DNA of 64,000 nt from Nitrosopumilus sp. GTDB taxonomy: Archaea; Thermoproteota; Nitrososphaeria; Nitrososphaerales; Nitrosopumilaceae. Position numbers and translations under genes: made by a program. This document shows positions 17,918 to 22,366 of this stretch, piece after piece. The notes under the pieces were generated by a model. It made no database searches. It saw only the letters and a program-made list of their open reading frames with translations, and was not told where the DNA came from. The stretch's first letter is position 1. Each line of letters begins with the position of its first letter. The stretch spans positions 928,001 through 992,000 of the forward strand of contig OZ252243.1 of assembly GCA_965249555.1 (NCBI GenBank), read 5' to 3'.

Positions 17918-18091
17918 TTACAATCCAGATCTATCTGGAATATAGTCTGATGCCATATTGATTGCATTATCTTTCATGATTTCAAGATAGGTATCATAAT
18001 CTGCTTCAAAGTTACAGTGAGGACATTTAACTTTCGTAATTTCATCATCTAAAATTGCAACTTTTTCACACTCTGGGCACCTTGCATCCAT
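17918..18091 (-). CDS. small zinc-ribbon protein (57 aa)
   Basis: Hand translation MDARCPECEKVAILDDEITKVKCPHCNFEADYDTYLEIMKDNAINMASDYIPDRSGL*; not in the ORF track. Confidence 0.8.
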   Translation of the reverse strand: MDARCPECEKVAILDDEITKVKCPHCNFEADYDTYLEIMKDNAINMASDYIPDRSGL

Positions 18092-18145
18092 ATCTTAGTT
18101 TCACAATCAAGATATTTAATCATGATTATCAAATATGTCCTAAGT

Positions 18146-18185
18146 GGAGTTAGTTTAGTCTGGTATAACGTCAGCTTCCCAAGCT
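18146..18185 (+). repeat. att site: copy of the tRNA-Gly 5' half through the anticodon loop
   Basis: GGAGTTAGTTTAGTCTGGTATAACGTCAGCTTCCCAAGCT is identical to 21332-21371. Confidence 0.95.
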
Positions 18186-18366
18186 CGGTGCCTACGGCGC
18201 AAGACACCTTCGGTGATAAATTGATGAGAGGTAATTCTTTTTCATAAAACATTTTTAGTTTTTTTATTGAAAATATAATTTTATACTCATAATTTTTGTT
18301 AGGATTAAAGTTTCTTGAGAGGAATTCTCGTTTTTTCTTACTAAACATAATCATATCAGTAAACAA
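18146..18366 (-). pseudogene. putative N-terminal part of an att-split integrase (part of ORF 18049..18366)
   Basis: The frame reads through the att repeat. In the reconstituted circular form it stays open for about 54 further codons, down to 21169. Confidence 0.4.
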
Positions 18367-18423
18367 CTAGATCTTAAAAATATTTATTCCCATATCACTT
18401 ACTTTTTAACCTAAAGAAAAAAA

Positions 18424-18711
18424 ATGAATATGTTGCAGAAGTTAAAAACTAATCTTTTACCTGAAATTAAAATACAAAATACTGTTTGTACTGCAGATCT
18501 TAACCAGAAAATAAACATTGCAGAATTTAACAGATATTATTTTTTGAGCTGCAATCTAGATCTGTATAGATGTGGGTATGTAAAGGATGATTCCATGATA
18601 GGAAGAACCACTGTGTTTGCAAATGGAAAATTAATTTCAGTTGGAACAAAAAGCCAAAAAGAAGCCATTAAGAAATTAAAAAAACTTGTAACAATAGTTA
18701 CACAGAAATAA
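18424..18711 (+). CDS. single-repeat TATA-binding-protein-like protein
   Basis: IKIQNTVCTADLNQKINI...RTTVFANGKLISVGTKS..EAIKKL matches one TBP repeat (IENIVA..DL...LIFSSGKMVITGAKS). Confidence 0.7.
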   Translation: MNMLQKLKTNLLPEIKIQNTVCTADLNQKINIAEFNRYYFLSCNLDLYRCGYVKDDSMIGRTTVFANGKLISVGTKSQKEAIKKLKKLVTIVTQK

Positions 18712-19988
18712 TTCTAATTCCTTCCCAGAGTCTTATTATTTTTCCTTCTATTCTCCCTATTGTTGATTCAATACCAAACTTTTGGGAAACTTTGTAATTG
18801 AAAGCTTTTTCTTTTTTTGGAGTGATTTTATTTTTCTTACACCACTTGCAAAATACCTGAAAGATGGAGACCTTGGAAGTTTGTCTCAAAATCCTGCTCA
18901 ACACAAGAATCCAAAAATGTGTCTATCGGATTGGCTTTTTGTGTCCAAATTTCTTGTAATTTTGAGGTATTTTCATCATATGTCAATTTTCCATTTTTCT
19001 TTATTTTTTGAATATATAGAAGAAGTAAATTTAGAATTCCTGAAAGTTTATGTTCTGTTGTTAATTCGTTGAAAAGATTTTGATTAATTTTGTATTTTTT
19101 ATTCTGATGAGTAAATTGTTGATTCCATTCAATCAAAACTAATCTTCGATAAACTGCATGTGAGTTTTCACCAAGTTCAGGTAATTCATTACATGAAAAG
19201 ATCGACTTTGCAGTGTTTCTCATCTTAAATCTATGTTGATTTTTCCTTTGAACTTCTATGGAGTCACTACTGATGATTGCTTTGATGGTGCCAAGTTCAG
19301 GAATTTCTCTTCTTGAAATATCTGCATAGATGTTTGCAAGTTTACTATCTAATCCAGCTTTTGCAAATCGATCTGATTCCATATCATGAATTGAGATATT
19401 AGAAACATTTTCTGAGCCTAAAAATCGTTCCATAACATTCAAGCAGGTACTTTTTCCATTAGCACCAGATCCTACATTCATGAACATTTTTTCTAGATGG
19501 ATATTTGGGAGTAATATAGAGGCAAACGCTTCTAATGCAGATATCTTATTTTTCTCCTCAGGAAGGCATTGATCTAAAAACCTCTGGAATTGTTCACATA
19601 TAGCATTTTGATCATATGTTACTGGTAGCTGAATTCTGAAAAGGAAGTTTGAAGAATGTGGTTGAAGTTGTTCTGTCTTTAAATTAAGAATTCCATTTCT
19701 TAGATTTATCAAGTTTTCATAACTATCAAATTCTTGATCTCGTGAAACATGTGTTTCTCGTCTAATAGTATTGATCACTTCTTTGCAATTGTGAGTTTTA
19801 CAGTCTGGAATTATTTTTTGGCATTCTTCTTTAATTATGATTTCTCCTCCACTTTTGTAGATACCATCTTCATAGACTAGAACTTGTTCAGAATCCCTTA
19901 AGGTCTTGAAATGAAAGGAGTTTCGGATAATGTCTGCATAATGACCATTTCCATACCTAATTTCACTCATTTTTAACTCAATTTCCAT
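18698..19988 (-). pseudogene. phage/plasmid D5 (P4-family) SF3 helicase, frameshifted near 18880
   Basis: D5_N region (LINLRNGILNL..PHS), Walker A GSGANGKST, SCNELP, RRLVLIEW. The C-terminal winged helix (SKVSIFQVFCKWCKKNKITP) lies in frame 18698..18904. Confidence 0.85.
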
Positions 19989-20200
19989 TGTGCTTCAATA
20001 ATTTCATTATTGCGATTATTGAAAGATATTTCCAATGCCCTGAACATGTCGTTTGAATTGTTATTTGTTGTTAGCATGATCTTTTCTATGGGAAAATCCA
20101 GATCTAAATACCTTTGTAGTAATTTTCTCAAAAAATATTTTTTCGGTTTGACTATAGAAATTGCAATTTGATTTTCTTTATGTTAAATTTTTTAAAATTA

Positions 20201-20746
20201 TTATTTTAACTCTGGGAATATGTCTGCATACATTAGTTTGAATTTGTCTTTTCTTTTTATTTCGGCAATTTGGTACTGATATTTTTTATAAAAATTAACT
20301 GCATCTTTAGTAAATAATACAATATATCTACATCCTACTTTGTCTGAGATAATTCGTGCTAATCCATTACACCATAATAATACATATTCTCCAAAACCTT
20401 TTCCTCTAAATTTTTTGTCAATACAAAAATCAAGAATTACTAATGCAGGATATAGATTGCCGTCACGAGTGGCAGGTCTCTTTTTTTTAATTATTTTATC
20501 TTTGTGAATATTAGATGTAGCTACTGTAACATAACCAATAGAATTTTTCTTGTAAGTTATGATGTAAGTAGTACCAAGATGTGCAGTTTGATTTTTTAAT
20601 GCTCTTTTATCAATAAAATATTGTAAGCATTGAGTGTCTTCACCTAATTCATTGGTACAATCAAAATGAGGTTTATGACTAGATTTTAATTTTGGAAAGC
20701 CAAATGCATCTTCGTCAATTTGAAATTTAGTTGAAGAACTAGCCAT
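20201..20746 (-). CDS. GNAT acetyltransferase, TacT/AtaT-like toxin
   Basis: FDC..LQYF, GYVTV, YPALVI..CIDKKFRGKGFGEY, VGCRYIVL, AVNFYKKY. Confidence 0.8.
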   Translation of the reverse strand: MASSSTKFQIDEDAFGFPKLKSSHKPHFDCTNELGEDTQCLQYFIDKRALKNQTAHLGTTYIITYKKNSIGYVTVATSNIHKDKIIKKKRPATRDGNLYPALVILDFCIDKKFRGKGFGEYVLLWCNGLARIISDKVGCRYIVLFTKDAVNFYKKYQYQIAEIKRKDKFKLMYADIFPELK

Positions 20747-20774
20747 AAAAATTATGAATGTGTGTAGGTAATTA

Positions 20775-20936
20775 TTACTTACTTTTTGGTGCTTGTCTTG
20801 GTTGACAGTGTTTGAGATAAAACTTCTCAGATTTTTTAAAATAAGCTATCTCTTCTGGTGTTGCTTGTCTTTTCTGATATTTTTCAAATGCTTTTGCATT
20901 CTTGCCTGTAAGTACAATTGGTTCATTTGGATTCAT
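20775..20936 (-). CDS. small putative antitoxin (53 aa) upstream of the GNAT
   Basis: Hand translation MNPNEPIVLTGKNAKAFEKYQKRQATPEEIAYFKKSEKFYLKHCQPRQAPKSK*; ends 28 bp before the GNAT ATG. Confidence 0.6.
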   Translation of the reverse strand: MNPNEPIVLTGKNAKAFEKYQKRQATPEEIAYFKKSEKFYLKHCQPRQAPKSK

Positions 20937-21168
20937 TATGTCATATACTCCTGTATAGAACGATTTTCTGATGTCATTATTAAATTAAGCATCTGATTTT
21001 CTCCTAGATTTTTTATAGATCCTTCTAGAGATAAGGTAGAATCTGTATTAGTTGAGCATAGACAGTTTTGCAGCATAAAATAGGCATAATCTGATTCCAT
21101 CATTTGATATTTCACAGTAAGGAGATCTAAGAAACAGGGACTGATATAATTGACATTATTGATAAATA

Positions 21169-21331
21169 TCATCTTGCATATCTTGCATTTTTGTTAGAGT
21201 ATAACCAGTTCTTGTATGCCGGATCGGCAGACAAACCTTGGAGGGCCTTACTAAAAACAGTAAGATCCATCTTACTGAATTCAGTAAGAGGAAAATTGTT
21301 TTTAGAGGGCTGACCGAAGGTCTGCGCAGGC
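21169..21331 (-). pseudogene. putative degraded C-terminal part of the split integrase
   Basis: In-frame continuation of the 18366 frame across att: PAQTFGQPSKNNFPLTEFSKMDLTVFSKALQGLSADPAYKNWLYSNKNARYAR*. Confidence 0.35.
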
Positions 21332-21403
21332 GGAGTTAGTTTAGTCTGGTATAACGTCAGCTTCCCAAGCTGAAGGCCGCGGGTTCAAATCCCGCACTCC
21401 GCA
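21330..21403 (+). tRNA. tRNA-Gly(CCC)
   Basis: Acceptor GCGGAGT/ACTCCGC, anticodon arm TCAGC-TTCCCAA-GCTGA, T arm GCGGG-TTCAAAT-CCCGC. No intron; CCA not encoded. Confidence 0.97.
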
Positions 21404-22366
21404 TCATAGTTCTCTAATTGCTTGTTCTATTACTCCTCTATCTGGGGCTTGCGGAAAATATTTCAAATAACTTTTGAGATCCTCTTTTGCATCAGAATTT
21501 TTATTTTGTTTTTCTCTAAGATAAGCACGGTTTTTGTAAATTTTAGCAGATCTTTTTGGATTAATTTCAATAGATTTAGTGTAATAATTCTCTGCCTTTT
21601 CAAATTGATTTGTTTTAAGATAAAAATTTCCTAGACCATTGTATGTTAGATATGATCTGTGGTTGATTTCCAAGGATTTTTCATAAAACTTGATACATTC
21701 AGAAGAGTTTTGTTCATTCATCATTGAACCCAATAGATGTAAAGCAGTTGAGTTGTTTGGATCAAGTACTATAGCTTGCTTTAGTAATTCAAGTGCTTCA
21801 GAGGAATTCTTTAGAATATTTAATTTCTCAGAGGTAAAACACAATCGATTTGATTTGTTATTAGAATCATTTTCAAGTTTTACAGAAGACAAAATTTCTA
21901 GTGGGGCCAATATTATCATTAATCTTCCTTCCTCTGACCATTCCTTGTCAAAGATATCTTGCGGTATGGCTCCTTCTTGTTGTTCTCCTTCTTGATTACC
22001 TTTCTGGATATAATGAAGGATTGTCTTTTCTTCATCATTATAGCCTGTAATGACAGATGCATGTTGTGTAATTTCTGGAATTCCTGGAAGAATAACAATT
22101 GGAGGTATTCCAGAATCAATAATTTTTTTTAATTCAGATAGAGATGAATGAATTATTTTGCATGTAAGACCATGTCTTTCTGCAGATTCTATTCCTTCAA
22201 TTAGAACACTACCATTAGATTCTGAATATTGTTTTGCAGTTTCTATGGCTTCAGCCATAGGTAATTCAATATTCCAATATTTTGAAACCACGTTAATAGG
22301 CAATGGAAGACAAATATTCTCTTCATCAACAAGAGGCAATAATAATTCATGGCTTTCTTGTTCCAT
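21404..22366 (-). CDS. C39-peptidase-like domain plus TPR repeat protein
   Basis: ENICLP (Cys), QHASVITGY (His), C-terminal TPR repeats. Confidence 0.8.
   Translation of the reverse strand: MEQESHELLLPLVDEENICLPLPINVVSKYWNIELPMAEAIETAKQYSESNGSVLIEGIESAERHGLTCKIIHSSLSELKKIIDSGIPPIVILPGIPEITQHASVITGYNDEEKTILHYIQKGNQEGEQQEGAIPQDIFDKEWSEEGRLMIILAPLEILSSVKLENDSNNKSNRLCFTSEKLNILKNSSEALELLKQAIVLDPNNSTALHLLGSMMNEQNSSECIKFYEKSLEINHRSYLTYNGLGNFYLKTNQFEKAENYYTKSIEINPKRSAKIYKNRAYLREKQNKNSDAKEDLKSYLKYFPQAPDRGVIEQAIREL

Follow-up and report, generated by a model that had tools for sequence, protein, structure and literature searches.

Integrases of the pTN3 type have their attB site in the 5′ half of a tRNA gene, with expression of the rebuilt tRNA driven by the integrase promoter; the passages of PMC8371274 on these enzymes describe them as unique in archaea in this use of the 5′ half. 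For pTN3 and TKV4 of Thermococcales, the sections of PMC5495485 on integration give a common stretch of 41 bp, a minimal segment Leu2-44, and a tRNA parted from its original promoter. When the gene of a suicidal integrase is partitioned into int(N) and int(C), the element becomes trapped as soon as no free copies are left, a process called "gene capture" in the same passages of PMC8371274. In a survey of thaumarchaeal elements, the main text reports that all but one of the tRNA-targeting elements use the 3′ region of the gene, the exception being CalSub-E1 in a tRNA-Ser gene of Ca. Caldiarchaeum; it gives NitEve-E3 as the one case of an SSV1-like split integrase, finds elements as small as 2.6 kb, and cites Zhao and Williams 2002 for rare bacterial recombination with the tRNA 5′ region (PMC6563490). 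Here we analyze a window of 64,000 nucleotides (nt) from Nitrosopumilus sp. (G000:C1:928001-992000; GCA_965249555.1, contig OZ252243.1), whose genome G000 is a single contig of 2.23 Mb. The best overall explanation of window positions 18144-21371, and one we consider likely, is a defective 3.2-kb cryptic integrated element with promoter replacement of tRNA-Gly(CCC). Like the cryptic elements treated in the main text of the thaumarchaeal survey (PMC6563490), it is small, lies in a tRNA gene, carries a replication helicase of the type found in mobile genetic elements, and has no virus or conjugation genes, but unlike all but one of the tRNA-targeting elements surveyed there it occupies the tRNA 5′ half.

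ARAGORN called one tRNA in the window, tRNA-Gly(CCC), which scored 74.1 bits against the Rfam tRNA model and was the sole tRNA with a CCC anticodon called in G000. With intron search, ARAGORN returned 62 tRNA calls in this genome, many of them doubtful tRNA-Phe(GAA), tRNA-Gly(ACC), and tRNA-Asp(ATC), so that these counts are not to be taken at face value. As an initial annotation of the window had stated, nt 3-42 of the gene recur as an exact 40-nt direct repeat 3.2 kb upstream (copies at 18146-18185 and 21332-21371; two matches in the window, 0 expected from 100 shuffles). Together with the two bases that precede it, the left copy corresponds to tRNA nt 1-42, with a single mismatch at nt 2. 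The insert of ~3.2 kb between the copies has a G+C content of 0.26-0.33 and is not distinct from its surroundings. We searched for the tRNA and its right flank in 24 genomes of the same genus and 16 of the same order. The site was empty in 18 of the 24 congeners: the sequence upstream of their tRNA is homologous to the left flank of the window (18086-18143), includes a conserved AAGATATTTAAT block as well as the beginning of the zinc-ribbon gene, and differs from window 21270-21329. The initial annotation had held that integration would be contradicted by element-free relatives sharing the sequence upstream of the tRNA, and these 18 upstreams instead differ. Among the other six, G004 was occupied, with an upstream resembling the right end of the window, four were cut by contig ends, and one gave no match. 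Because the empty sites carry left-flank–like upstreams, the insert is, on this comparison of sequences, an integrated element in the tRNA 5′ half, and DNA of the element now lies upstream of the intact tRNA.

The integrase, absent from the initial annotation, is split between the two ends, with int(N) on the left and a truncated int(C) on the right. A minus-strand open reading frame (ORF) at 18049-18366 begins at 18366, crosses attL, and ends in the host flank. When the circular junction was modelled, this left-end ORF, the core, and the right end formed a single open frame of 127 codons with a stop at 21169-21171. The int(N) part is 55% identical over 82 amino acids (aa) to the left-end ORF of the G004 element, and the int(C) part is 69% identical over 68 aa (E 2e-26) to the G004 integrase. 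The frame stops after 127 of about 347 codons and lacks the catalytic domain; a tblastn search by the G004 integrase gave no integrase similarity in the window beyond the int(C) stop. A frameshifted continuation past 21172, suspected by eye, was dropped on the same tblastn result. As in SSV-type integrases, attP lies within the integrase ORF in the window, and homologous int(N) and int(C) stand at both ends of the elements in G004, G151, and G205. By its modelled frame and its relatives, the ORF pair is an SSV-type "suicidal" integrase gene split by integration, antisense to the tRNA. The paired palindromic motifs inside the int(C) remnant belong to a region that is kept at -60..-42 in related elements (majority frequency 0.78). 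The modelled attP core is also flanked by short inverted repeats (18190-18214 and 21313-21331; ACCTTCGGT vs ACCGAAGGT) and by GC-rich GCGC..GGC motifs, with comparable motifs in G151 and G004; these may be core-type binding sites.

We searched the G004 integrase frame in 301 genomes of the same family (27 genera) and in metagenomes. Relatives were found in 21 genomes from seven genera (a tally that includes one unpublished genome, G294, used for no other result) and in 132 metagenome stretches, 80 of which were kept as loci. Upstream of the G004 tRNA, a 249-aa ORF on the opposite strand has a weak match to PF16795 ("Archaeal phage integrase") that falls under the cut-off (18.9 vs 27 bits), while 11 of 15 family members match this model at E <= 0.01 (best E 2.9e-11). 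Residues R176, K205, R242, and Y273 are invariant in 15 aligned frames and absent from the window remnant; from their order and context, we infer that they are the catalytic R..K..R..Y. A sequence-profile search of the PDB with the integrase alignment gave no recombinase match. The AlphaFold (AF2) model (pLDDT 77.6) had 3uxu as its top Foldseek match, and VIA-align scored it against the SSV1 integrase catalytic domain at Z 15.3, 14.7, and 13.8 (3uxu, 3vcf, and 4dks; root-mean-square deviation 2.4-2.6 Å over 133-145 residues), with XerA as the next fold match (Z 12.8). The family resembles the SSV1 integrase in having attP inside the integrase ORF and, in intact relatives, a predicted catalytic fold closest to SSV1 Int. 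An antisense overlap with the 3′ half of a tRNA, seen in most of the family, is the usual arrangement in Sulfolobus. The clade of the window differs from SSV1 in using the 5′ half, which replaces the promoter of the tRNA.

This arrangement, with int(C) antisense at the 5′ end of tRNA-Gly(CCC) (hereafter 5′-type), was found at genome loci of G000, G004, G151, G308, G205, G331, G089, and G220 and at 30 of the 80 kept metagenome loci. The tRNA of the eight genome loci is intact by ARAGORN except in G089, where the contig ends inside the gene. More distant integrases have at their start the antisense 3′ half (roughly nt 31-74) of tRNA-Thr(CGT), Cys(GCA), Ala(GGC), Gly(GCC), or Arg(GCG) (3′-type). 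The element in G151 is complete, with 5.3 kb between ends that share a 42-nt exact repeat and with intact int(C) and int(N); that in G308 spans 5.05 kb, with a 45-nt repeat at 93% and a stop in the integrase. Two metagenome loci, L093 and L101, have both ends on one contig, at repeat spacings of 2,257 and 2,853 bp. They hold little beyond the split integrase, and the L093 spacing lies under the 2.6-kb minimum reported for thaumarchaeal cryptic elements. Cargo varies: G004 and G151 encode a 471-521-aa protein of no known family, G004 also has a Mrr-like nuclease, and the window and G124 elements have a D5-like helicase in common; the integrase/att module is the part common to all. In viral contigs, no relative was confirmed as a free unintegrated form with intact integrase, and int(N) lay directly upstream of int(C) in none of the 80 kept metagenome loci. 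One metagenome-assembled genome, G089, holds both an empty tRNA-Gly(CCC) site (L072, G089:C2) and an integrase-tRNA junction (L041/L076, G089:C1), which suggests that the element is polymorphic in this population.

In 9 of the 12 empty-site relatives shown, a native box TATTTAAT stands at -31..-24 of the intact tRNA, and in the other three it is shifted by 1-3 nt; in the window this box precedes the truncated copy. At the right end, the string that the initial annotation had proposed as a promoter was located at 21291-21307 and holds a TATA-like octamer, TTTTTAGA, which lies antisense inside the integrase reading frame at the same distance from the tRNA as the native TATTTAAT. The form TTTTTA(G/A)(A/T) occupies -31..-24 in eight of nine element-occupied genome loci. 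All 21 distinct metagenome upstreams have a T-rich box, with TTTTTA (18) or TTTATA (1) at -31..-24 or the box one base downstream (2); the octamer is TTTTTAGT in 13, TTTTTAGA in three, and TTTTTAAT, TTTATAGT, and TTTTTACC in one each. In a conservation profile of 28 distinct 60-mers from 39 loci, the octamer was the best-conserved block upstream (majority frequency 0.91 vs 0.60 in the 23-nt spacer), and third codon positions of the antisense frame carried 1.56 bits around the box vs 0.63 in the spacer. TTTTTA was present at its fixed place in 22 of 24 distinct 5′-type flanks vs 0 of 29 distinct 3′-type flanks on the same core side. The G220-type variant lacks the 42 nt that adjoin the tRNA in G205, yet has TTTTTAGT at -31..-24, and the counterpart of this octamer in G205 sits further upstream in the frame. 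The TTTTTAGA octamer also occurs upstream of one tRNA-Arg(TCG) gene in G000. An element-borne TATA box is the best reading of these observations, and it most likely drives the tRNA. The initial annotation's view that the tRNA must use a promoter of the element is thus supported: the native box was left with the truncated copy and a conserved octamer stands at the native distance, and the activity of this octamer as a promoter is putative.

The window locus resembles pTN3/TKV4, as described in the sections cited above, in its split SSV-type integrase, its att site in the tRNA 5′ half (the window repeat corresponds to nt 1-42), and a rebuilt tRNA that is off its native promoter. It differs in geometry. 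In pTN3, int(C) lies behind the tRNA promoter and the integrase is co-directional with the tRNA (PMC8371274, passages on pTN3), whereas in the window the integrase is antisense and a separate box, the putative promoter, lies inside its coding sequence; integrase and tRNA were on opposite strands in the window and at every 5′-type tRNA-Gly(CCC) locus examined. The hosts of pTN3/TKV4 are hyperthermophiles and the window host belongs to the mesophilic Nitrosopumilaceae; the systems are likened by att geometry and published description.

We propose that site-specific recombination across tRNA nt 1-42 brought the element into tRNA-Gly(CCC). The recombinase would have been an SSV-type tyrosine integrase with attP inside its own frame, antisense to the tRNA. 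Upon integration this integrase gene would have been split, leaving int(N) on the left and int(C) on the right. As the common block is the 5′ half, the native promoter would have stayed with the truncated copy, the intact tRNA would have gained element DNA upstream, and TTTTTAGA within the antisense integrase frame would now drive it. Loss of the integrase catalytic domain and a frameshift in the helicase gene followed; given these two lesions, the element is a defective remnant. No second copy of the integrase family was found in G000 in a search with the G004 integrase frame, and on that ground the element would be unable to excise by itself. The initial annotation had proposed that the tie between tRNA and right end may help explain persistence after decay. 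This suggestion holds only for the keeping of a right-end stump, since the whole element would stay in place first through its split and truncated integrase. In G331 (L068, G331:C1), the integrase sequence upstream of tRNA-Gly(CCC) is down to about 65 nt, which include the box, no second repeat copy was found, and the left flank is not syntenic. G331 fits retention of the stump, with G308 as an intermediate state; the cases are few. The public runs consisted of contigs, and the 40-nt exact repeat exceeds the assembler word, so contigs break at the repeat and the integrated form is inseparable from an excised circle plus empty site. Among these runs no joint bridging 18146-21371 was listed. A low-depth contig (X2) that skips 18278-20183 (depth 3.2, side 25) was given no weight.

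Several observations weigh against promoter replacement by the octamer. One 5′-type locus, L041 (G089), has GAAATAGT at the box position, although its tRNA part is intact as far as the contig runs. The 5′-type loci form one clade, and the box counts are therefore not independent events. A promoter matrix, obtained by expectation maximization on the upstream regions of 55 ARAGORN tRNA calls in G000, converged on a weak A-rich motif and scored candidate and native promoter equally low, at 2.8 bits; it was uninformative partly because ARAGORN overcalls in this genome. The box could also be conserved as an integrase-binding site or for its Lys-Asn codons in an AT-rich genome. That the octamer is an attP integrase-binding site or a coding constraint, with the tRNA start elsewhere in 21173-21329 or further away, nevertheless appears unlikely to us. 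The octamer does lie inside the integrase frame beside palindromic, binding-site–like motifs, and an attP site would likewise keep a fixed distance from the core. However, no such box exists on the int(C) side in any of the 29 3′-type flanks, including that of G124, the closest relative of 3′-type, with a 73% identical integrase; the octamer falls exactly at the position of the native TATTTAAT; and third codon positions are more conserved at the octamer than in the spacer. Read-through into the tRNA from within the element is also improbable, as all cargo genes but one are on the opposite strand.

The tRNA itself could be dispensable: a tRNA-Gly(UCC) gene exists in G000 and could in principle read GGG, and tRNA-Gly(CCC) may not be essential. 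We nonetheless find it quite improbable that tRNA-Gly(CCC) fell silent after promoter loss and has simply not yet decayed, for the gene retains its high Rfam score and is a single base off its relatives, and continued selection is favoured by the intact tRNA that ARAGORN calls beside int(C) at seven genome and 27 metagenome loci whose elements have diverged. That single base is itself a difficulty for integration as proposed. Both repeat copies have A at tRNA nt 24 (window 18169 and 21355), where relatives with an otherwise matching D arm have G; by our reading the change turns a D-stem U-G into a U-A pair, and had the host carried G, a simple crossover in the anticodon loop would not account for the A in both copies. 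A local duplication or rearrangement of the tRNA gene without site-specific integration would agree with the want of a complete integrase gene between the repeats, but it is scarcely credible given the empty sites in congeners, the split integrase frame that crosses the repeat, and the same junctions, with different cargo, in many unrelated genomes and metagenomes.

Returning to the integrated element and its choice of the tRNA 5′ half, the closest contrast is offered by G124. Its integrase, 73% identical to that of G004, has gone into tRNA-Gly(CCC) too, but into its 3′ half (nt 28-74). Of its two contigs (L074, G124:C26, and L070, G124:C34), one carries the native promoter, an intact tRNA-Gly(CCC), and an int(N) reading into the tRNA 3′ end, and the other carries int(C), with a partial copy (nt 28-74) and the host gene of the right flank beside it. 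We rejected the reading that G124 had lost the tRNA 5′ half by deletion, since the intact tRNA with int(N) is on another contig. The 5′-type block (nt 1-42) and the 3′-type block of G124 overlap in the anticodon arm only, and we infer from this that the anticodon arm is the crossover region. We built a quick maximum-likelihood tree (SH-aLRT only, midpoint root), which is provisional. All tRNA-Gly(CCC) integrases grouped with support of 100 (29 5′-type rows, four rows of unassigned type, and G124 nested among them), and all other clades were 3′-type. The tree and its provisional rooting suggest one switch to the 5′ half and one back, in G124.

In two metagenome loci, L137 and L145, the 5′ half (nt 1-42) of tRNA-Arg(GCG) stands before int(C) in sense orientation, which would be a pTN3-like geometry within the same integrase family. 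In a separate integrase clade (L049, L053, and L058), an intact tRNA-Arg(GCG) lies 150-1080 nt downstream on the same strand, and no direct repeats were found around these integrases.

Integration into a tRNA 5′ half with promoter replacement is already known from Thermococcales and, rarely, from bacteria. What appears to be new here is the lineage, Nitrosopumilaceae, the antisense geometry with a promoter-like box in the coding sequence, and a close pair of 5′ and 3′ integrases on one tRNA. A full-text literature search found no paper on a suicidal or SSV-type integrase in Nitrosopumilus; it did not extend to the supplementary tables of PMC6563490, which may list the element. We lean modestly toward a broader scenario, in which an undescribed family of suicidal SSV-type integrases is widespread in Nitrosopumilaceae, the att block of one clade moved from the 3′ to the 5′ half of tRNA-Gly(CCC) with the anticodon arm as pivot (and back in at least one lineage, G124), the 5′ clade evolved an antisense TATA box that keeps the tRNA expressed, and hosts keep the promoter stump after decay, as in the window and G331.

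The locus illustrates how expression of a host tRNA can come under the control of a mobile element in abundant marine ammonia oxidisers, and it extends 5′-half targeting past the pTN3-like integrases of Thermococcales, called unique in a 2021 review. The empty site, intact elements of 2.2-5.3 kb, decayed elements, and a promoter-only stump form a natural series in which the permanence of "gene capture" can be studied. Related integrases on opposite halves of one tRNA offer a handle on how tyrosine integrases change their att site, a question left open in reviews of archaeal recombinases. For annotation, short antisense integrase fragments at tRNA genes mark element ends that integrase-based searches miss.

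Table 1. Features of the tRNA-Gly(CCC) locus, in window coordinates.
Feature	Position	Strand	Basis or remark
Host zinc-ribbon gene, left flank of the insertion site	17918..18091	-	Weak zinc-ribbon Pfam matches; directly upstream of tRNA-Gly(CCC) in empty-site relatives
Native tRNA promoter box TATTTAAT, now before the truncated copy	18113..18120	+	Conserved in empty sites; putative TATA box
attL, truncated tRNA-Gly(CCC) copy, nt 1-42	18144..18185	+	One mismatch (nt 2); exact from 18146 on
int(N), the split integrase gene's N-terminal part	18186..18366	-	Similarity to G004; in frame with int(C) in the modelled junction
95-aa protein, single TBP repeat	18424..18711	+	PF00352, E 6.1e-9, 36 bits vs cut-off 22.9
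D5-like / P4-type primase C-terminal helicase gene	18698..19988	-	Frameshifted near 3′ end; ORFs 18837-19988 and 18698-18904
52-aa ORF	19973..20131	-	No family match in family scans
Single GNAT acetyltransferase	20201..20746	-	PF13508, E 3.3e-6; phrog_1758, E 6.7e-16
53-aa and 78-aa ORFs	20775..21172	-	No family match; stand where the catalytic domain of the integrase would be expected
int(C) remnant, with a stop 53 codons past the core	21172..21331	-	Similarity to G004; modelled frame
Paired palindromic CTTACT..AGTAAG motifs inside the int(C) remnant	21247..21288	.	Inverted repeat I14; candidate integrase-binding sites
Element-supplied TATA-like octamer TTTTTAGA, -31..-24 of the intact tRNA	21299..21306	+	Position and conservation
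Intact tRNA-Gly(CCC); attR core 21332-21371	21330..21403	+	ARAGORN, Rfam
Host TPR / peptidase C39-like gene, right flank	21404..22366	-	Pfam; syntenic in relatives

The cargo between the repeats (Table 1) agrees with the initial annotation for the TBP-like ORF and the D5-like helicase, both of which have family matches. The "GNAT pair" reduces to one GNAT ORF, and a toxin-antitoxin reading of this ORF with the 53-aa ORF was set aside, as it had no family support. Family scans found no virion or conjugation genes among the ORFs of the element; it is integrated, has att repeats at its flanks and a split integrase, and thus corresponds to a cryptic element. The larger helicase ORF (18837-19988) matches D5_N (PF08706, 55.8 bits), DUF5906 (PF19263, 72.1 bits), and TIGR01613 (159.2 bits vs a cut-off of 108.7), and family scans found no primase domain in it. 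The helicase homologue of G124, 42% identical, aligns to the window gene in two frames (-3 and -1), and no second helicase copy was found in G000. The TBP-like ORF matches NCBIfam TBP models far under their cut-offs. DNA 73% identical to this ORF lies at G000:C1:385191-385363 (L002, about 1501-1673), within no ORF of at least 70 aa; by our own reading, made independently of family scans, the ORFs beside it resemble type I restriction-modification genes.

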